Shown piece after piece: positions 1,145-63,729 of a stretch of DNA of 64,000 bases. The number at the start of each line of letters is the position of its first letter. Position 1 is the first letter of the stretch. The notes beneath the pieces are model-generated. The model searched no databases. It was not told the origin of the DNA and worked only from the letters and a program-made list of their open reading frames with translations. The DNA comes from Escherichia coli. Its GTDB lineage: Bacteria > Pseudomonadota > Gammaproteobacteria > Enterobacterales > Enterobacteriaceae. The position numbers and the translations under genes are program-made. Location of the stretch: the NCBI RefSeq assembly GCF_045037415.1, contig NZ_CP173438.1, one strand, 5' to 3'.

Positions 1145-1624
1145 ATGAAACGAATTGCGTTTGTGGGTACCGTCGGGGCAGGAAAAACAACGTTATTTAA
1201 TGCGTTGCAGGGGAATTATACCCTCGCAAGAAAAACACAGGCCGTGGAATTTAATGATAATGGCGATATTGATACGCCGGGTGAATATTTTAGCCATCCC
1301 CGCTGGTATCACGCCTTAATTACCACGCTACAGGATGTGGATATGCTGATCTATGTCCACGGCGCGAATGACCCGGAAAGTCGGTTGCCTGCCGGGTTGC
1401 TGGATATTGGCGTCAGCAAACGGCAAATCGCCGTCATCAGTAAAACGGACATGCCAGATGCTGACGTCGCCGCAACGCGAAAGTTATTGCTTGAGACGGG
1501 CTTCGAAGAGCCGATTTTCGAGCTAAACAGCCACGACCCGCAAAGCGTGCAGCAACTGGTGGATTATCTGGCATCTCTCACCAAACAGGAGGAAGCAGGT
1601 GAAAAAACTCATCACAGCGAATGA
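1145..1624 (+). CDS. eutP: EutP, P-loop GTPase/acetate kinase-like protein
   Basis: 159 aa, Walker A GTVGAGKTT; eut synteny. Confidence 0.9.
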   Translation: MKRIAFVGTVGAGKTTLFNALQGNYTLARKTQAVEFNDNGDIDTPGEYFSHPRWYHALITTLQDVDMLIYVHGANDPESRLPAGLLDIGVSKRQIAVISKTDMPDADVAATRKLLLETGFEEPIFELNSHDPQSVQQLVDYLASLTKQEEAGEKTHHSE

Positions 1625-8494: not shown

Positions 8495-9721
8495 ATGGGA
8501 ATTAACGAAATCATCATGTACATCATGATGTTCTTTATGCTGATAGCTGCCGTAGACAGGATCCTGTCGCAGTTCGGCGGTTCTGCTCGTTTCCTCGGTA
8601 AGTTCGGTAAAAGTATCGAAGGATCCGGCGGTCAGTTCGAAGAAGGCTTTATGGCAATGGGCGCTCTGGGCCTGGCTATGGTCGGTATGACCGCACTGGC
8701 ACCGGTACTGGCCCACGTTCTCGGACCGGTGATTATCCCGGTTTACGAAATGCTCGGCGCAAACCCGTCAATGTTCGCCGGAACACTGCTGGCGTGCGAT
8801 ATGGGCGGCTTCTTCCTCGCCAAAGAGCTGGCGGGCGGTGACGTAGCAGCGTGGCTATACTCTGGGTTAATTCTCGGGTCGATGATGGGGCCAACGATTG
8901 TGTTTTCCATTCCGGTGGCGCTCGGCATTATCGAACCTTCTGACCGTCGTTATCTGGCGCTCGGCGTGCTGGCGGGCATAGTGACCATTCCGATTGGCTG
9001 TATCGCTGGTGGTCTGGTAGCGATGTACTCCGGTGTGCAGATCAACGGCCAGCCTGTTGAATTCACCTTTGCGCTGATCCTGATGAACATGATCCCGGTA
9101 CTTATCGTTGCGGTGCTGGTGGCGCTGGGGCTGAAATTCATCCCGGAAAAAATGATCAACGGCTTCCAGATCTTCGCCAAATTCCTCGTTGCATTGATCA
9201 CCCTCGGTCTTGCCGCTGCGGTAGTGAAATTCCTCCTTGGCTGGGAACTGATCCCGGGCCTTGATCCTATCTTTATGGCCCCTGGCGATAAACCCGGTGA
9301 AGTGATGCGCGCCATTGAAGTTATCGGCTCGATCTCCTGCGTTCTGTTAGGGGCGTATCCAATGGTACTGCTGCTGACTCGCTGGTTTGAAAAACCGCTG
9401 ATGAGCGTCGGTAAGGTGCTGAATATGAACAATATCGCGGCAGCCGGCATGGTGGCAACGCTTGCCAACAACATTCCGATGTTTGGCATGATGAAGCAGA
9501 TGGATACCCGCGGCAAAGTCATCAACTGTGCCTTCGCCGTTTCCGCTGCTTTCGCGCTGGGCGACCATTTAGGCTTCGCCGCTGCCAACATGAACGCCAT
9601 GATCTTCCCGATGATTGTCGGCAAATTGATCGGCGGCGTAACGGCAATTGGCGTGGCGATGATGCTGGTGCCAAAAGAAGACGCGAGCGCGGCTAAAACC
9701 GAAGCGGAGGCGCAATCGTGA
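8495..9721 (+). CDS. eutH: EutH, ethanolamine permease
   Basis: 408 aa polytopic membrane protein; synteny. Confidence 0.9.
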   Translation: MGINEIIMYIMMFFMLIAAVDRILSQFGGSARFLGKFGKSIEGSGGQFEEGFMAMGALGLAMVGMTALAPVLAHVLGPVIIPVYEMLGANPSMFAGTLLACDMGGFFLAKELAGGDVAAWLYSGLILGSMMGPTIVFSIPVALGIIEPSDRRYLALGVLAGIVTIPIGCIAGGLVAMYSGVQINGQPVEFTFALILMNMIPVLIVAVLVALGLKFIPEKMINGFQIFAKFLVALITLGLAAAVVKFLLGWELIPGLDPIFMAPGDKPGEVMRAIEVIGSISCVLLGAYPMVLLLTRWFEKPLMSVGKVLNMNNIAAAGMVATLANNIPMFGMMKQMDTRGKVINCAFAVSAAFALGDHLGFAAANMNAMIFPMIVGKLIGGVTAIGVAMMLVPKEDASAAKTEAEAQS

Positions 9722-11121
9722 ACACTCGCCAGCTACTGAGCGTCGGTATCGATATCGGCACCACCACCACCCAGGTGATCTTCTCCCACCTGGAGCTGGT
9801 TAACCGTGCGGCGGTGTCGCAGGTGCCGCGCTACGAATTCATCAAACGCGAAATTAGCTGGCAAAGCCCGGTGTTCTTTACCCCTGTCGATAAACAGGGT
9901 GGTTTAAAAGAAGCGGAACTGAAAACCTTAATCCTCGAGCAATATCAGGCTGCGGGCATTGCGCCGGAAAGCGTTGATTCTGGTGCCATCATCATCACCG
10001 GTGAAAGCGCGAAAACCCGCAACGCTCGCCCGGCGGTGATGGCGCTCTCTCGGTCGCTGGGCGATTTTGTCGTCGCCAGCGCCGGGCCGCATCTCGAATC
10101 CGTGATCGCCGGTCACGGTGCCGGGGCGCAAACCCTTTCTGAACAACGGCTGTGTCGGGTACTGAATATCGACATCGGCGGTGGCACCGCGAACTACGCC
10201 CTGTTCGATGCCGGAAAAATCAGCGGCACTGCCTGCCTCAACGTCGGCGGTCGCCTGCTGGAAACCGACAGCCAGGGGCGCGTGGTTTACGCTCATAAAC
10301 CGGGGCAGATGATTGTGGATGAGTGCTTCGGCCCAGGCACTGACGCCCGTTCGCTGACCGGCGCGCAATTGGCGCAGGTTACCCGCCGGATGGCGGAACT
10401 GATTGTCGAAGTGATTGACGGAACGCTCTCGCCGCTCGCGCAGGCATTGATGCAAACCGGTTTGCTGCCCGCAGGTGTTACGCCCGAAATCATTACGCTT
10501 TCTGGCGGGGTAGGCGAATGTTATCGCCACCAGCCCGCCGACCCGTTCTGTTTTGCCGATATCGGCCCGCTTCTGGCAACGGCGCTGCATGACCATCCGC
10601 GTCTGCGTGAGATGAACGTGCAGTTTCCGGCGCAAACCGTGCGCGCCACGGTGATTGGCGCGGGTGCACATACCCTTTCGCTCTCTGGCAGCACAATATG
10701 GCTGGAGGGCGTACAACTGCCGCTGCGCAATTTGCCGGTGGCGATCCCGATTGATGAAACGGATCTGGTCAGTGCCTGGCAACAGGCGCTGATTCAACTG
10801 GATCTTTGCCCCAAAACTGACGCGTACGTGCTGGCGCTTCCCGCCTCGCTGCCTGTGCGTTACGCCGCGGTACTGACGGTCATCAACGCGCTGGTCGATT
10901 TCGTCGCGCGTTTTCCGAATCCGCATCCCCTGCTGGTGGTGGCCGGGCAGGACTTTGGTAAAGCTCTGGGCATGTTGTTGCGCCCACAGCTACAACAACT
11001 CCCGTTGGCAGTCATTGACGAAGTGATTGTCCGCGCGGGGGACTATATCGACATTGGTACGCCTCTTTTTGGCGGATCGGTTGTGCCGGTGACGGTGAAA
11101 TCACTCGCATTTCCTTCCTGA
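9718..11121 (+). CDS. eutA: EutA, ethanolamine ammonia-lyase reactivating factor
   Basis: 467 aa; overlaps eutH stop; synteny. Confidence 0.9.
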   Translation: MNTRQLLSVGIDIGTTTTQVIFSHLELVNRAAVSQVPRYEFIKREISWQSPVFFTPVDKQGGLKEAELKTLILEQYQAAGIAPESVDSGAIIITGESAKTRNARPAVMALSRSLGDFVVASAGPHLESVIAGHGAGAQTLSEQRLCRVLNIDIGGGTANYALFDAGKISGTACLNVGGRLLETDSQGRVVYAHKPGQMIVDECFGPGTDARSLTGAQLAQVTRRMAELIVEVIDGTLSPLAQALMQTGLLPAGVTPEIITLSGGVGECYRHQPADPFCFADIGPLLATALHDHPRLREMNVQFPAQTVRATVIGAGAHTLSLSGSTIWLEGVQLPLRNLPVAIPIDETDLVSAWQQALIQLDLCPKTDAYVLALPASLPVRYAAVLTVINALVDFVARFPNPHPLLVVAGQDFGKALGMLLRPQLQQLPLAVIDEVIVRAGDYIDIGTPLFGGSVVPVTVKSLAFPS

Positions 11122-25746: not shown

Positions 25747-26621
25747 TGGCGGAAGTGACACAATTGAAGCGTTATGACGCGCGCCCGATTAACTGGGGCA
25801 AATGGTTTCTGATTGGCATCGGGATGCTGGTATCGGCGTTCATCCTGCTGGTGCCGATGATTTATATCTTCGTACAGGCGTTCAGCAAAGGACTGATGCC
25901 GGTGTTACAAAATCTGGCCGATCCGGACATGCTGCACGCCATCTGGCTGACGGTGATGATCGCGCTGATTGCCGTACCGGTAAACCTGGTGTTCGGCATT
26001 CTGCTGGCCTGGCTGGTGACGCGCTTTAACTTCCCCGGACGCCAGCTATTGCTGACGCTGCTGGACATTCCGTTTGCCGTGTCGCCGGTGGTTGCTGGTC
26101 TGGTGTATCTGCTGTTCTACGGCTCTAACGGCCCGCTGGGCGGCTGGCTGGATGAACATAATCTGCAAATTATGTTCTCCTGGCCGGGTATGGTGCTGGT
26201 CACCATCTTCGTGACGTGTCCGTTTGTGGTGCGCGAACTGGTACCGGTAATGTTAAGTCAGGGCAGCCAGGAAGACGAAGCGGCGATTTTACTTGGCGCG
26301 TCCGGCTGGCAGATGTTCCGTCGCGTCACGCTGCCGAACATCCGCTGGGCGCTGCTTTACGGCGTGGTGCTGACCAACGCCCGCGCGATTGGCGAGTTTG
26401 GCGCGGTATCGGTGGTTTCCGGCTCGATTCGTGGCGAAACCCTGTCGCTGCCGTTACAGATTGAATTGCTGGAGCAGGACTACAACACCGTCGGCTCCTT
26501 TACCGCCGCCGCGTTGTTGACGCTGATGGCGATTATCACCCTGTTTTTAAAGAGTATGTTGCAGTGGCGCCTGGAAAATCAGGAAAAACGCGCGCAGCAG
26601 GAGGAACATCATGAGCATTGA
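25746..26621 (+). CDS. cysW: sulfate/thiosulfate ABC transporter permease
   Basis: 291 aa; start overlaps cysU stop. Confidence 0.9.
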
Positions 26622-27708
26622 GATTGCCAATATTAAGAAGTCTTTTGGTCGCACCCAGGTGCTGAACGATATCTCACTGGATATTCCTTCTGGTCAGATG
26701 GTCGCGTTGCTTGGGCCGTCCGGTTCCGGAAAAACTACGCTGCTGCGCATTATCGCCGGGCTGGAGCATCAAACCAGTGGGCATATTCGCTTTCACGGTA
26801 CCGACGTGAGCCGTCTGCACGCGCGGGACCGTAAAGTCGGTTTCGTGTTCCAGCATTACGCGCTGTTTCGCCATATGACGGTGTTTGACAATATCGCTTT
26901 TGGCCTGACGGTGTTGCCACGGCGTGAACGCCCGAATGCGGCGGCGATCAAAGCGAAAGTGACAAAATTGCTGGAGATGGTGCAGCTTGCTCATCTGGCG
27001 GATCGTTATCCGGCGCAGCTTTCCGGCGGTCAGAAACAGCGTGTGGCGCTTGCACGCGCGCTGGCTGTGGAACCGCAAATTTTGCTGCTTGATGAACCGT
27101 TTGGCGCGCTGGATGCGCAGGTGCGTAAAGAGCTGCGTCGCTGGCTGCGTCAACTGCATGAAGAACTGAAATTCACCAGCGTGTTCGTGACCCACGACCA
27201 GGAAGAGGCGACCGAAGTAGCTGATCGTGTAGTGGTGATGAGTCAGGGCAATATTGAACAAGCTGACGCACCGGATCAGGTATGGCGTGAACCGGCGACT
27301 CGTTTTGTGCTGGAGTTTATGGGCGAGGTAAACCGCCTGCAGGGAACCATTCGCGGCGGGCAGTTCCACGTTGGCGCACATCGCTGGCCGCTGGGATACA
27401 CCCCCGCGTATCAGGGGCCGGTGGATCTCTTCCTGCGCCCGTGGGAAGTGGATATCAGCCGCCGTACCAGCCTCGATTCGCCGCTACCCGTACAGGTACT
27501 GGAAGCCAGCCCGAAAGGTCACTACACCCAATTAGTGGTGCAGCCGCTGGGGTGGTACAACGAACCGCTGACGGTCGTGATGCATGGCGACGATGCCCCG
27601 CAGCGTGGCGATCGTTTATACGTTGGTCTGCAACATGCGCGGCTGTATAACGGCGATGAGCGTATTGAAACCCGCGATGAGGAACTTGCTCTCGCACAAA
27701 GCGCCTGA
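26611..27708 (+). CDS. cysA: sulfate/thiosulfate ABC transporter ATP-binding protein
   Basis: 365 aa; Walker [10 protein letters not shown] and ABC signature LSGGQKQR. Confidence 0.9.
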
Positions 27709-27842: not shown

Positions 27843-28754
27843 GTGAGTACATTAGAACAAACAATAGGCAATACGCCTCTGGTGAAGTTGCAGCGAATGG
27901 CGCCGGATAACGGCAGTGAAGTGTGGTTAAAACTGGAAGGCAATAACCCGGCGGGATCGGTAAAAGACCGTGCGGCGCTTTCGATGATTGTCGAGGCGGA
28001 AAAGCGCGGCGAGATTAAACCGGGTGATGTGCTGATCGAAGCCACCAGTGGTAACACCGGCATTGCGCTGGCAATGATTGCGGCGCTTAAAGGCTATCGC
28101 ATGAAATTGCTGATGCCCGACAACATGAGCCAGGAACGCCGTGCGGCGATGCGTGCCTACGGTGCAGAACTGATTCTGGTCACCAAAGAACAGGGCATGG
28201 AAGGCGCACGCGATCTGGCGCTGGAGATGGCGAATCGCGGCGAAGGAAAGTTGCTCGATCAGTTCAATAATCCCGATAACCCTTACGCCCATTACACCAC
28301 TACCGGGCCGGAAATCTGGCAGCAAACTGGCGGGCGTATTACCCATTTTGTCTCCAGCATGGGAACAACCGGCACTATCACCGGCGTGTCACGCTTTATG
28401 CGCGAACAATCCAAACCGGTGACCATTGTTGGCCTGCAGCCGGAAGAAGGCAGCAGTATTCCCGGCATTCGCCGCTGGCCTGCGGAATATCTGCCGGGGA
28501 TTTTCAATGCTTCTCTGGTGGATGAGGTGCTGGATATTCATCAGCGCGATGCGGAAAACACCATGCGCGAACTGGCAGTGCGGGAAGGGATTTTCTGCGG
28601 CGTAAGCTCCGGCGGCGCGGTTGCCGGAGCACTGCGGGTGGCAAAAGCTAACCCTGGCGCGGTGGTGGTGGCGATCATCTGCGATCGTGGCGATCGCTAC
28701 CTTTCTACCGGGGTGTTTGGGGAAGAGCATTTTAGCCAGGGGGCGGGGATTTAA
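27843..28754 (+). CDS. cysM: cysteine synthase B (O-acetylserine sulfhydrylase B)
   Basis: 303 aa PLP-dependent family. Confidence 0.9.
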   Translation: MSTLEQTIGNTPLVKLQRMAPDNGSEVWLKLEGNNPAGSVKDRAALSMIVEAEKRGEIKPGDVLIEATSGNTGIALAMIAALKGYRMKLLMPDNMSQERRAAMRAYGAELILVTKEQGMEGARDLALEMANRGEGKLLDQFNNPDNPYAHYTTTGPEIWQQTGGRITHFVSSMGTTGTITGVSRFMREQSKPVTIVGLQPEEGSSIPGIRRWPAEYLPGIFNASLVDEVLDIHQRDAENTMRELAVREGIFCGVSSGGAVAGALRVAKANPGAVVVAIICDRGDRYLSTGVFGEEHFSQGAGI

Positions 28755-28756
28755 GA

Positions 28757-29188
<432 letters not shown>

Positions 29189-29229
29189 CTGGAATACGAT
29201 GAGGATCATCGGCAAGGAGAAAAAATTAA

Positions 29230-30081
29230 ATGAGTAGTTTGTTGTTGTTTAACGATAAGAGCAGGGCACTGCAGGCGGATATCGTCGCCGTGCAGTCGCA
29301 GGTAGTGTACGGCAGCGTAGGCAACAGCATTGCGGTGCCTGCTATAAAGCAGAACGGCCTGAATGTCTTTGCCGTGCCGACGGTATTGCTGAGCAATACG
29401 CCGCATTATGACACTTTCTACGGTGGTGCGATTCCGGATGAATGGTTTAGCGGTTATTTGCGTGCGCTTCAGGAGCGTGATGCGCTGCGCCAACTTCGTG
29501 CTGTAACCACGGGCTATATGGGAACGGCATCGCAAATCAAAATCCTTGCCGAGTGGCTGACTGCGCTACGCAAAGACCATCCTGACCTATTGATCATGGT
29601 CGATCCGGTGATTGGCGATATTGATAGCGGAATTTATGTCAAACCTGACCTTCCCGAGGCGTATCGACAATATTTACTGCCGCTGGCACAGGGAATTACC
29701 CCCAATATCTTTGAGCTGGAAATCCTGACCGGTAAAGATTGCCGCGATCTCGACAGTGCCATTGCTGCCGCAAAAAGTCTGCTTTCAGACACATTAAAGT
29801 GGGTGGTGATTACCAGCGCCTCCGGCAATGAAGAAAATCAGGAGATGCAGGTTGTGGTGGTCAGTGCCGACAGCGTGAATGTCATTTCCCATTCCCGGGT
29901 TAAAACTGACCTGAAAGGGACTGGCGACCTGTTTTGTGCTCAGCTTATCAGTGGTTTGCTGAAAGGGAAGGCGTTAACCGATGCGGTGCACCGCGCGGGG
30001 TTGCGCGTACTGGAAGTGATGCGCTATACCCAGCAGCATGAGAGCGATGAATTGATTTTGCCGCCTCTGGCTGAAGCATAA
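29230..30081 (+). CDS. pdxK: pyridoxal/pyridoxine/pyridoxamine kinase
   Basis: 283 aa; ribokinase-like fold. Confidence 0.9.
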
Positions 30082-38319: not shown

Positions 38320-38538
38320 ATGGAAAAAGAGCAGCTGATTGAAATAGCCAATACGATAATGCCGTTTGGCAAGTACAAAGGGCGTCGCTTAATCGACCTG
38401 CCGGAGGAGTATCTGCTGTGGTTTGCCCGCAAAGATGAGTTCCCGGCAGGGAAGCTCGGTGAGCTAATGCAAATCACGCTGCTGATTAAAATCGAGGGGC
38501 TGACGCAACTGGTCCAGCCCCTGAAACGTCCGCTTTAA
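38320..38538 (+). CDS. ypeB: small protein YpeB (DUF3820)
   Basis: 72 aa from internal ATG (MEKEQLIEIANTIMPFGKYKGRRL...); ATG 1 nt after ligA stop. Confidence 0.8.
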   Translation: MEKEQLIEIANTIMPFGKYKGRRLIDLPEEYLLWFARKDEFPAGKLGELMQITLLIKIEGLTQLVQPLKRPL

Positions 38539-44946: not shown

Positions 44947-44966
44947 TTTCGCAAATTGCAGATAGC

Positions 44967-44995
44967 AAAAAAACGCCTTTAGGGCGCTTTTTTAC
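44967..44995 (-). terminator. intrinsic terminator downstream of the tRNA Val-Val-Lys operon
   Basis: cgccctaaaggcg hairpin flanked by A7 and T6. Confidence 0.7.
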
Positions 44996-44997
44996 AT

Positions 44998-45073
44998 TGG
45001 TGGGTCGTGCAGGATTCGAACCTGCGACCAATTGATTAAAAGTCAACTGCTCTACCAACTGAGCTAACGACCC
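44998..45073 (-). tRNA. lysV: tRNA-Lys (anticodon UUU)
   Basis: Reverse complement matches the canonical E. coli tRNA-Lys sequence (GGGTCGTTAGCTCAGTTGGTAGAGCAG...CCA). Confidence 0.95.
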
Positions 45074-45077
45074 GAAG

Positions 45078-45153
45078 TGGTGGGTGATGACGGGATCGAA
45101 CCGCCGACCCCCTCCTTGTAAGGGAGGTGCTCTCCCAGCTGAGCTAATCACCC
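45078..45153 (-). tRNA. tRNA-Val (anticodon UAC)
   Basis: Reverse complement matches canonical tRNA-Val(UAC) (GGGTGATTAGCTCAGCTGGGAGAGCACCTCCCTTACAAGGAGG...). Confidence 0.95.
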
Positions 45154-45199
45154 ACTTCGGTACTTCACATTGTTACAAGAAATCTAGCTGGCGAGAAAG

Positions 45200-45275
45200 T
45201 GGTGGGTGATGACGGGATCGAACCGCCGACCCCCTCCTTGTAAGGGAGGTGCTCTCCCAGCTGAGCTAATCACCC
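45200..45275 (-). tRNA. tRNA-Val (anticodon UAC), second identical copy
   Basis: Identical to the copy at 45078..45153. Confidence 0.95.
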
Positions 45276-50566: not shown

Positions 50567-50600
50567 TAAAAAAGCCGGGGAATTATCCCCGGCTTTTTTA
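50567..50600. terminator. bidirectional intrinsic terminator between convergent pdeA and nupC
   Basis: gccgggg aattat ccccggc hairpin flanked by A6 and T6. Confidence 0.8.
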
Positions 50601-60373: not shown

Positions 60374-62869
60374 ATGTTAACGATTCAATTTCTCTGTCCT
60401 TTGCCTAACGGTCTACATGCTCGTCCGGCGTGGGAACTTAAAGAGCAGTGCAGCCAGTGGCAAAGCGAAATCACTTTTATTAACCATCGCCAGAACGCAA
60501 AGGCCGATGCGAAAAGCTCGCTGGCGCTGATTGGCACTGGCACTTTATTTAATGACAGTTGCAGCCTGAACATTAGCGGTAGCGATGAAGAGCAGGCGCG
60601 GCGAGTGCTGGAAGAGTATATCCAGGTGCGCTTTATCGACAGCGATAGCGTCCAGCCGACGCTGGCAGAACTGACGGCGCATCCGCTGCCGCGTTCATTA
60701 AGCCGCCTGAACCCGGATTTACTGTACGGCAACGTGCTGGCAAGCGGCGTTGGCGTGGGTACACTGACCCTGTTACAGAGCGACAGCCTCGACAGTTATC
60801 GGGTGATCCCTGCGAGTGCGCAAGATTCCACCCTACTGGAGCACAGTCTGGCAACGCTTGCCGAGCAACTGAACCAGCAATTGCGTGAGCGTGACGGCGA
60901 AAGCAAAACTATCCTCAGCGCCCATTTGTCGCTGATTCAGGATGATGAATTTGCAGGCAATATCCGTCACCTGATGGCAGAACAGCATCAGGGGCTGGGG
61001 GCGGCGATCATCAGCAATATGGAGCAGGTTTGTGCCAAACTTTCTGCTTCTGCCAGCGATTATCTGCGCGAGCGGGTCAGCGACATTCGCGATATCAGCG
61101 AACAGTTGCTGCATATCACCTGGCCGGAACTAAAACCGCGCAATAATCTGGTGCTTGAAAAACTGACCATTCTGGTGGCTGAAGATTTAACCCCAAGCCA
61201 GTTTTTGAGCCTCGATTTAAAAAATCTTGCGGGCATGATTCTGGAGAAAACCGGGCGCACCTCGCATACCCTGATCCTGGCCCGCGCTTCGGCGATCCCG
61301 GTACTGAGCGGACTGCCGCTGGATGCGATTGCCCGTTATGCCGGGCAACCTGCAGTGCTTGACGCCCAGTGCGGCGTGCTGGCGATTAACCCGAATGACG
61401 CGGTGAGCGGTTATTATCAGGTCGCGCAGACGCTGGCGGATAAACGCCAAAAACAACAGGCGCAAGCTGCCGCGCAGCTGGCCTATTCCCGTGATAACAA
61501 ACGTATTGATATTGCGGCGAATATTGGCACCGCTCTGGAAGCCCCAGGCGCGTTTGCTAACGGCGCGGAAGGCGTTGGGCTGTTTCGTACCGAAATGCTC
61601 TATATGGATCGCGACAGCGCGCCGGACGAGCAGGAACAGTTTGAAGCGTACCAGCAGGTGCTATTGGCGGCGGGCGACAAGCCGATTATCTTCCGCACGA
61701 TGGACATCGGTGGCGATAAAAGCATTCCTTACCTCAACATTCCCCAGGAAGAGAACCCGTTCCTCGGCTATCGCGCGGTACGTATTTACCCGGAATTTGC
61801 TGGCCTGTTCCGCACTCAATTGCGGGCGATTTTGCGCGCTGCCAGTTTCGGCAACGCCCAGTTGATGATCCCAATGGTCCACAGTCTCGATCAGATCTTA
61901 TGGGTGAAGGGTGAGATCCAAAAAGCGATCGTTGAGCTTAAGCGCGATGGCCTGCGTCATGCAGAGACGATTACGCTGGGTATCATGGTGGAAGTGCCGT
62001 CGGTGTGCTACATCATCGACCACTTCTGCGATGAGGTCGATTTCTTCAGTATCGGTTCTAACGATATGACCCAGTATCTGTATGCAGTCGATCGTAATAA
62101 CCCGCGCGTATCGCCGCTGTATAACCCGATTACGCCATCGTTCCTGCGCATGTTGCAGCAGATTGTTACCGCTGCGCATCAGCGCGGCAAATGGGTAGGT
62201 ATTTGCGGTGAACTGGGCGGTGAAAGTCGTTATCTGCCGCTACTGCTAGGGCTGGGGCTGGATGAGCTAAGCATGAGTAGCCCGCGTATTCCGGCAGTGA
62301 AAAGCCAGCTTCGTCAACTGGATAGCGAGGCGTGTCGGGAACTGGCGCGTCAGGCGTGCGAGTGCCGCAGCGCGCAGGAAATTGAAGCGTTACTTACCGC
62401 GTTTGCGCCGGAAGAAGACGTTCGCCCACTGCTGGCACTAGAGAATATCTTTGTTGATCAGTCCTTTAGTAATAAAGAGCAGGCGATCCAGTTCCTGTGC
62501 GGTAACCTCGGTGTTAACGGGCGTACTGAACATCCGTTCGAGCTGGAAGAAGATGTCTGGCAGCGGGAAGAGATTGTTACTACTGGCGTTGGTTTTGGCG
62601 TGGCGATCCCGCACACCAAATCACAGTGGATCCGTCATTCCAGTATCAGCATTGCCCGGTTGGTGAAACCGGTTGACTGGCAGTCAGAAATGGGCGAAGT
62701 CGAACTGGTGATCATGCTGACGCTGGGCGCTAACGAAGGGATGAATCATGTGAAAGTCTTCTCGCAGCTGGCGCGTAAACTGGTGAATAAAAACTTCCGC
62801 CAGTCGCTGTTTGCCGCGCAAGATGCACAAAGTATTCTGACGCTGCTGGAAACGGAATTAACCTTCTGA
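60374..62869 (+). CDS. fryA: PTS multiphosphoryl transfer protein FryA (HPr-like, EI-like and EIIA-Fru-like domains)
   Basis: 831 aa; N-terminal HPr-like (LHARPA), central EI-like, C-terminal EIIA. Confidence 0.85.
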   Translation: MLTIQFLCPLPNGLHARPAWELKEQCSQWQSEITFINHRQNAKADAKSSLALIGTGTLFNDSCSLNISGSDEEQARRVLEEYIQVRFIDSDSVQPTLAELTAHPLPRSLSRLNPDLLYGNVLASGVGVGTLTLLQSDSLDSYRVIPASAQDSTLLEHSLATLAEQLNQQLRERDGESKTILSAHLSLIQDDEFAGNIRHLMAEQHQGLGAAIISNMEQVCAKLSASASDYLRERVSDIRDISEQLLHITWPELKPRNNLVLEKLTILVAEDLTPSQFLSLDLKNLAGMILEKTGRTSHTLILARASAIPVLSGLPLDAIARYAGQPAVLDAQCGVLAINPNDAVSGYYQVAQTLADKRQKQQAQAAAQLAYSRDNKRIDIAANIGTALEAPGAFANGAEGVGLFRTEMLYMDRDSAPDEQEQFEAYQQVLLAAGDKPIIFRTMDIGGDKSIPYLNIPQEENPFLGYRAVRIYPEFAGLFRTQLRAILRAASFGNAQLMIPMVHSLDQILWVKGEIQKAIVELKRDGLRHAETITLGIMVEVPSVCYIIDHFCDEVDFFSIGSNDMTQYLYAVDRNNPRVSPLYNPITPSFLRMLQQIVTAAHQRGKWVGICGELGGESRYLPLLLGLGLDELSMSSPRIPAVKSQLRQLDSEACRELARQACECRSAQEIEALLTAFAPEEDVRPLLALENIFVDQSFSNKEQAIQFLCGNLGVNGRTEHPFELEEDVWQREEIVTTGVGFGVAIPHTKSQWIRHSSISIARLVKPVDWQSEMGEVELVIMLTLGANEGMNHVKVFSQLARKLVNKNFRQSLFAAQDAQSILTLLETELTF

Positions 62870-62871
62870 CG

Positions 62872-63729
62872 TTAGCCCTGAAAACGTGCGCTATACTCTC
62901 CCGGCGTCAGACCAAACTGACGCCGGAAAACGCGACAAAAATAGTCGCTATCCGGAAACCCGCAACGCTGCGCCACTTCATGAATCGACAGATGATATTT
63001 TTGCAAAATCATCCTCGCTTTTGCCATTCGTACCCAGCGAACATACTCGATAAAACGCATTGTTCCATGCTGAGCAAACAGTTTTGACAGATGATTTGGC
63101 GTGATATTAAAAAACTGCGCCACGCTCTCGCGGGTGAGCAGCTGGGCATAATTATCCTGAATCCAGTTACAAATGCTGTGATAGAGAAAATCGCCGCGCG
63201 GTTGCGAATTGCCCGGCGGCATATTCACCACGTTGCGGCAAAGATGCAGCAAACTTAACACCAGTGGCTGAATGATATTCTGCTCCAGCGGCGAACGGCT
63301 AAGATGGGTGAGGGCGGTAAGCATCGCTTCACCTTCACCGCGTTGCAGGCTGGGAAGCTGGATCTGGCGAGCAGGATGTAACAACGACGTGGTGCGGCTA
63401 TCGTAAAACGATAACCCAAGCCAGGTCGGTGCGAACACCAGGCTTAACAGCAGCACCGGTTTGTTGTTGACCGGTAAATTAGCCGCGCGTGCTGGAATAA
63501 ACAGCATTTCTCCTTCCACCATACGTTGCTGCTTTGCTTCCAGCAGATTGCCGTATTCGCCGCGTAGCACGATATCCAGACGGGGAAAATCAATACATAA
63601 ACTGCCCACTGGCAATGAGGTAGGCTGGCTGGCAAACCAGACGCGCCCCAGTAGTTGCGGGTTAAGCACCAGGCCGCTGAACAGATCGGCGAAAAATTGT
63701 TGATCGGCGGGCAAGCCTGGTGCTTTCAT
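62872..63729 (-). CDS. ypdC: AraC-family transcriptional regulator YpdC
   Basis: 285 aa; C-terminal AraC HTH; convergent with fryA (2-bp gap). Confidence 0.85.
   Translation of the reverse strand: MKAPGLPADQQFFADLFSGLVLNPQLLGRVWFASQPTSLPVGSLCIDFPRLDIVLRGEYGNLLEAKQQRMVEGEMLFIPARAANLPVNNKPVLLLSLVFAPTWLGLSFYDSRTTSLLHPARQIQLPSLQRGEGEAMLTALTHLSRSPLEQNIIQPLVLSLLHLCRNVVNMPPGNSQPRGDFLYHSICNWIQDNYAQLLTRESVAQFFNITPNHLSKLFAQHGTMRFIEYVRWVRMAKARMILQKYHLSIHEVAQRCGFPDSDYFCRVFRRQFGLTPGEYSARFQG

Follow-up and report, generated by a model that had tools for sequence, protein, structure and literature searches.

The window analysed here, a stretch of 64,000 nucleotides of Escherichia coli DNA (NCBI RefSeq assembly GCF_045037415.1, contig NZ_CP173438.1), contains the convergent genes cysM and yfeK, whose stop codons lie 2 nt apart. 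The following features define this junction and its surroundings, all positions being those of the window:

27843..28754, plus strand: cysM, encoding cysteine synthase B (303 aa), the last gene of the cysPUWAM cluster (open reading frame; Pfam PALP, E=5.6e-75)
28755..28756: GA, the 2 nt that separate the two convergent stops (sequence)
28756..28762: ATTATTG, the 7 nt specific to the allele without yfeS, here called the empty allele, covering the stop codon of yfeK and the Gln codon before it (breakpoint mapping)
28757..29125, minus strand: yfeK, 122 aa, with a GTG start, a signal-peptide-like N-terminus and the C-terminus ...TVPAQ (open reading frame; Pfam DUF5329)
28759..28792: an imperfect palindrome, ATTGCGCAGGC / 12-nt loop / GTCTGCGCAAT, with an 11-bp stem (fold)
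29159..29186, minus strand: a sigma-E-type promoter motif upstream of yfeK, GAAACTT, 16 nt, TCAAA (motif search)
29230..30081, plus strand: pdxK, encoding pyridoxal kinase (283 aa), the divergent neighbour of yfeK (open reading frame, Pfam, RefSeq)

The assignment of cysM is based on its PALP domain, its orthologous position after cysA and the RefSeq annotation of identical DNA. Its stop codon is TAA (28752..28754) and that of yfeK reads TTA on the plus strand (28757..28759), so that the sequence and its open reading frames bear out the initial annotation of the window, in which the two stops had been placed 2 nt apart with GA between them. The yfeK product matches DUF5329 (PF17263) with E=1.8e-31 and 108.7 bits (cut-off 27), residues 24-115 aligning to positions 2-94 of a 95-position model, and it is further identified by its orthologous position between pdxK and cysM and its high identity to YfeK of K-12. 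Identical DNA from strain SK1144 is annotated in RefSeq as cysM, yfeK ('yfeK: YfeK family protein') and pdxK, and over the 2.3-kb region as a whole several E. coli genomes, SK1144 among them, show 100% identity and the uropathogenic strain 536 shows 99.3%, which places the window in a 536-like lineage of E. coli. As a side observation, cysA is frameshifted in the RefSeq record of SK1144 (locus L003, 1..409) and intact in the window (26611..27708, 365 aa), a difference that must fall outside the compared 2.3-kb stretch.

A spacing of 2 nt is not statistically unusual for convergent genes in this window, where genes packed as closely as this are common: among the eight convergent pairs measured, four have a gap of 5 nt or less. 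Apart from cysM/yfeK these are the following, all of which are found in K-12 as well:

15680..15690: eutR/hemF, 5-nt gap
38535..38538: ypeB/yfeH, 4-nt overlap
62867..62874: fryA/ypdC, 2-nt gap

These three pairs share with cysM/yfeK the same convergent architecture, with abutting or overlapping stops. In contrast to the other convergent pairs of the window, cysM/yfeK alone shows an insert polymorphism among E. coli genomes in the examined data.

The order pdxK (b2418), yfeK (b2419, 124 aa), yfeS (b2420, 244 aa), cysM (b2421) in K-12 had been correctly given in the initial annotation, and comparison with K-12 confirms that yfeS is absent from the cysM-yfeK junction of the window. The order and orientation of pdxK, yfeK and cysM are otherwise the same in K-12 MG1655, the flanks have 95-97% DNA identity and the sigma-E-type motif is conserved. 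Breakpoints derived by exact matching indicate that the two sequences are collinear through the cysM stop (...GGGGATTTAAG, up to window position 28755) and resume at CGCAGGCACCG (window 28763), and that between these points K-12 has 966 bp where the window has 7 nt (ATTATTG). This K-12 cassette has a GC content of about 40% (39% for yfeS itself), against 56% for cysM and 46% for yfeK. Its only open reading frame is yfeS, with a ribosome-binding site of its own (ACAGGAGGTAACATG) and a product that matches Pfam in a WGR domain only. On the cysM side the cassette carries an inverted repeat of the REP type (repetitive extragenic palindrome; 8556-8618 of the K-12 locus, L001) with strong folding (z=-2.2), the sole inverted repeat found within it.

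The cassette also supplies the last codons of yfeK, so that the protein ends in ...TVPAEGN in K-12 and in ...TVPAQ in the window (EGN for Q); K-12 YfeK has 124 aa and an ATG start, the window protein 122 aa and a GTG start. Upstream of this tail the two differ by five substitutions as read by eye (V9I, A17V, D54Y, M96I and the GTG/ATG start). The sequence ATTAATCC is present at both ends of the K-12 cassette and the empty site reads CAATAATC; because the 8-bp ATTAATCC repeats do not rebuild the empty site, the boundaries are not those of a clean target-site duplication. Judged from these ends, simple excision or integration cannot interconvert the two alleles. Neither an integrase or transposase gene nor terminal inverted repeats nor a clean target-site duplication was found in the yfeS cassette, which on these grounds does not qualify as a mobile element.

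The distribution of the two alleles was determined in 5426 complete E. coli genomes, using for the compact junction a full-length match to an 86-nt probe (28716..28801) and for the yfeS cassette the presence of at least 80% of the K-12-specific segment. The compact junction is present in 4008 of these genomes (about 74%) and the cassette in 1381, which makes the allele of the window the more common one and that of K-12 the rarer. The two alleles jointly account for 99.3% of the genomes, and the examples inspected outside both simple classes carry IS insertions, namely IS150 in yfeK (ECCTRSRTH03) and IS1 in yfeS (LR-03), both strains still having yfeS. At the junction, TTTAAG/ATTATTG/CGCAGG is identical in seven yfeS-free E. 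coli lineages with flanks 95-100% identical to the window; the seven genomes sampled include an O111:H8 strain, 2013C-4187, 536 and two (L008 and L009) that are yfeS-free although their YfeK and PdxK are of the K-12 type. The yfeS-free references SK1144, 536, O111:H8 strain 7-32 9A and 2013C-4187 share both the junction sequence and the 2-nt spacing with the window, yfeK being placed next to cysM in their RefSeq annotation. This spacing is annotated in seven diverse E. coli genomes and also in 536, whose yfeK is a pseudogene owing to a frameshift. The ...TVPAQ tail is encoded by each of the six intact copies examined from yfeS-free E. coli, save for one P-to-S change (L010).

Two further observations concern yfeK itself. 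Its frameshift in strain 536 (locus L004, 958..1327) is due to one extra base and leaves the cysM junction unchanged. The start codon (29123..29125) is GTG in the window, in strain 1428 and also in 536, and ATG in K-12 and the other sampled lineages.

Relatives of YfeK outside E. coli were examined in a scan of one genome per species, which gave 22 loci, Salmonella, Klebsiella and Shigella not being among them, and onto which YfeK, CysM, YfeS, PdxK, Crr and CysA were mapped. The yfeK-cysM intervals that bear on the direction of change are as follows:

Cryptic Escherichia lineage, about 91% identical in DNA (L013): 2-nt junction with the same 19 nt, one base differing just beyond
Pseudocitrobacter faecalis (L014): 2-nt junction with one base different, the ...PAQ tail being encoded (read from DNA)
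UBA5654 (L016): 1-nt gap
Escherichia sp. E1V33 (L012): 12-nt overlap
Citrobacter amalonaticus (L021), Superficieibacter (L018) and Entomohabitans (L024): 31-57 nt

In none of these loci does yfeS lie between yfeK and cysM. In E1V33 (1417..1428 of its locus) yfeK extends into the sequence antisense to the end of cysM, its product ending in PSNP, and the 12-nt overlap is a further 7-nt contraction of the cysM-yfeK junction. Since these outgroups are without yfeS, the compact state would be ancestral and the K-12 state a gain; on a modest set of outgroups (22 loci), parsimony thus favours gain over loss as the direction of change. An uncultured Pseudocitrobacter MAG (L015) has yfeS at exactly the two boundaries seen in K-12, which shows that the polymorphism crosses genus borders, so that an exchange of the empty allele, too, is conceivable in principle.

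Comparison of K-12 with this MAG is informative as to how the cassette may have spread. DNA identity reaches 94.8% over the cassette and 95.9% over yfeS alone, against 85.5% for yfeK, 89.6% for cysM and 68.6% for pdxK. As the cassette is far more similar than its flanks, its transfer must be later than the divergence of the hosts, and these identities indicate that the yfeS cassette arrived by horizontal transfer. Relatives of YfeS are patchily distributed: a 70%-identical copy is encoded on one E. coli plasmid, copies of about 40% identity occur in Fusobacterium records, and elsewhere there are WGR-domain matches only. A search for yfeS on phages gave just weak, partial matches in Listeria phage records.

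The same site is occupied by other genes in other lineages, and the following cargoes, all unrelated to yfeS, were found between yfeK and cysM:

Escherichia albertii (locus L019, 4331..6149): 1819 bp, 35% GC, with two open reading frames (280 and 175 aa) in the orientation of cysM
Citrobacter sedlakii: 3819 bp, with two open reading frames of about 630-650 aa, one of them with TPR repeats (weak Pfam match)
Superficieibacter electus: 516 bp

The 280-aa open reading frame of E. albertii has no Pfam match and the 175-aa one a sub-threshold DKNYY match. It was also observed that the E. albertii insert is preceded, right after yfeK, by a terminator-like hairpin (GGGGCAG...CTGCCCC, then a T-rich run). 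The cysM-side boundary of the cargo is the cysM stop itself in every case; towards yfeK, the boundary lies within the final few codons of that gene, past the conserved ...DKT, and the YfeK tail therefore varies with the cargo (PAQ, PAEGN, ELKNK, PSNP and others). No integrase, transposase, tRNA or terminal repeats, shared or otherwise, were found with the cargoes at this site, and PADLOC defence models gave no match at E<=0.01 for YfeS, the E. albertii open reading frames, those of C. sedlakii or YfeK.

Hotspots for the insertion of accessory genes between conserved core genes are a general concept, known as regions of genome plasticity. The yfeK/cysM site resembles them in that a fixed core pair flanks alternative, unrelated, AT-rich cargo depending on the lineage. 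On the other hand, it is very small (0.5-3.8 kb) and without mobility genes or known defence systems. The likeliest reason for the persistence of cargo here would be that insertion between two convergent 3' ends disrupts nothing. It could further be speculated that the junction is a cross-genus integration hotspot at which short, promoterless-looking, AT-rich cassettes (yfeS, the pairs of E. albertii and C. sedlakii, the S. electus open reading frame) are captured, at or near the palindrome, without an element-encoded recombinase, and that at least those on the yfeK strand (yfeS and the C. sedlakii pair) are read through from the sigma-E promoter. This proposal is to be regarded as a long shot; if it is true, foreign genes would be put under envelope-stress control at this site.

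With regard to transcription, no intrinsic (Rho-independent) terminator was detected in a scan of positions 28400..29300 on both strands, in line with the initial annotation, which had reported none between the convergent genes. The palindrome at 28759..28792 begins 4 nt past the cysM stop and overlies the last yfeK codons, its left arm being in part the 7 nt specific to the empty allele. An intrinsic terminator has a GC-rich stem, a loop of 3-8 nt and a U-tract after it; the palindrome, the loop of which measures 12 nt and which lacks a U-tract on both strands, does not have these features, and the folding of its 81-nt context is not distinguishable from that of shuffled sequences (z=-0.5 and -0.4). 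A terminator at the junction was accordingly rejected, the scan having found none and the palindrome folding no better than shuffles. Because no intrinsic terminator fits in the gap, the transcripts would have to overlap or be stopped by Rho; in the empty allele, those of cysM and yfeK would probably end inside or beyond the opposite gene, through Rho-dependent or non-canonical termination.

Upstream of yfeK, the motif GAAACTT, 16 nt, TCAAA, which we take to follow the sigma-E consensus, is the single exact match in the window, and none was obtained in 100 shuffles. In published work yfeK has been treated as a gene with a sigma-E promoter,(PMC3326320) and yfeKS has been described as an operon of the sigma-E regulon in K-12.(PMC2685091, PMC11502571) Following this operon literature, the yfeS cassette, where present, appears to be expressed from the yfeK promoter.(PMC2685091, PMC11502571)

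Taken as a whole, these data are best explained, and with considerable confidence, by an ancestral empty allele in the window and a derived, horizontally acquired yfeS cassette in a K-12-type minority. In this explanation the window would represent the ancestral empty state of a small accessory-gene insertion site between the 3' end of cysM and yfeK, the gene of a sigma-E-regulated periplasmic protein. In the derived allele, carried by K-12 and about a quarter of E. coli, a 966-bp AT-rich cassette would have replaced 7 nt. The cassette, which would have come by horizontal transfer, consists in this scheme of the WGR-domain gene yfeS, with its own ribosome-binding site and no promoter of its own described, and of the REP-type repeat beside cysM. 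Through it the last codon of yfeK, Q, would have been exchanged for the three codons EGN, and yfeS would be co-transcribed with yfeK from the sigma-E promoter, as the literature has it.

The reading implicit in the initial annotation was the reverse, namely that yfeS is ancestral and was deleted in the lineage of the window, which would leave the cysM and yfeK 3' ends fused and the yfeK tail chimeric. K-12 does have yfeS at this site, as does the Pseudocitrobacter MAG, and the direct repeat GATTAAT / ATTAATCC that flanks the K-12 cassette could in principle mediate a deletion. However, a deletion between these direct repeats predicts TTTAAGGATTAATTTCCTTCCGCAGG and the observed sequence is TTTAAGATTATTGCGCAGG; this route was rejected, as its predicted product does not fit the junction. 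Moreover, the same junction occurs in 74% of E. coli, in the approximately 91%-identical Escherichia lineage and in P. faecalis, more distant genera have short spacers without yfeS, and the cassette is AT-rich and much more conserved between genera than its flanks. Deletion of an ancestral yfeS is thus considered very unlikely. What the initial annotation had observed stands, and its interpretation is partly supported: the description of yfeS as 'missing' from the window is not sustained, yfeS being a gain in the K-12-type minority; yfeK directly abutting cysM, the arrangement in reference genomes that it had itself named as contrary evidence, is what was found in 4008 of 5426 E. coli and in other genera; and the chimeric 3' end that it suspected in the 122-aa open reading frame belongs to K-12 instead, ...TVPAQ being the widespread form.

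It might also be argued that the 2-nt spacing is kept by selection, with the palindrome acting as a shared bidirectional terminator or as a 3'-end stabiliser of the cysPUWAM and yfeK mRNAs. This would agree with the 11-bp stem predicted right after the cysM stop, with the near identity of junction and palindrome in E. coli, cryptic Escherichia and P. faecalis, and with the observation that in K-12 the cassette leaves a stem of about 5 bp and carries REP hairpins of its own (z=-2.2). Such a function is nevertheless unlikely, given that there is no U-tract on either strand, that the scan gave no terminator and that the fold energy is no better than that of shuffles (z=-0.5, -0.4). The palindrome also lies within the yfeK coding sequence, and its conservation may be due simply to that of the protein; E1V33, UBA5654 and Citrobacter lack it, and a quarter of E. 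coli genomes manage without it. An assembly or sequencing artefact, finally, can be dismissed outright: the 2.3-kb region has matches of at least 99% in about 1000 complete genomes and the junction probe in 1274, and both open reading frames are intact with full-length Pfam domains.

Alignment of the whole window to K-12 revealed other segments of K-12 that are absent from it. The initial annotation had pointed to several compact junctions lacking K-12 genes, and this fits the alignment, in which yfeW, murR, CPZ-55 and IS186C are missing as well as yfeS. The murR gene, which encodes the murQP repressor (about 917 nt in K-12), is replaced by 47 nt (22759..22805); as murQ and murP are present, the MurNAc operon would be without its cognate repressor gene. 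The yfeW segment (PBP4B; 1409 nt including flank) is absent at 20219..20258, with a residual match at 20255..20341, and the yfeW-like remnant after murP comprises only the first 29 codons. The cryptic prophage CPZ-55, which in K-12 occupies 6.8 kb between eutB and eutA, is absent at about 11099..11121, and the eut operon is therefore uninterrupted in the window; its empty junction shows a 23-nt alignment overlap, consistent with an attachment-site repeat. IS186C is absent at about 50578..50589, with a 12-nt alignment overlap at the empty site, as is a 142-nt K-12 segment of the cysP-ucpA intergenic region at about 23781. Overlapping or repeated alignments across the valU-valX-valY-lysV tRNA cluster (44957..45275) suggest that the tRNA-Val copy number differs from that of K-12.

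In conclusion, the cysM/yfeK junction of the window is an ordinary, already annotated majority allele of an accessory-gene polymorphism, and neither a deletion, nor a chimera, nor an artefact; as such it is of little importance in itself. Its meaning lies rather in the use of K-12 as a baseline: K-12 is not the ancestral reference, and a gene 'missing' relative to it is here one that K-12 has gained, a caution that the other K-12 segments absent from the window suggest as well. For annotation, the polymorphism explains the two lengths of YfeK, 122 and 124 aa. In K-12-based screens yfeS figures as a 'conserved protein of unknown function', and it is an accessory gene that about 74% of complete E. 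coli genomes lack. With variable cargo in several genera, the site illustrates on a small scale how convergent core genes can flank an insertion hotspot.
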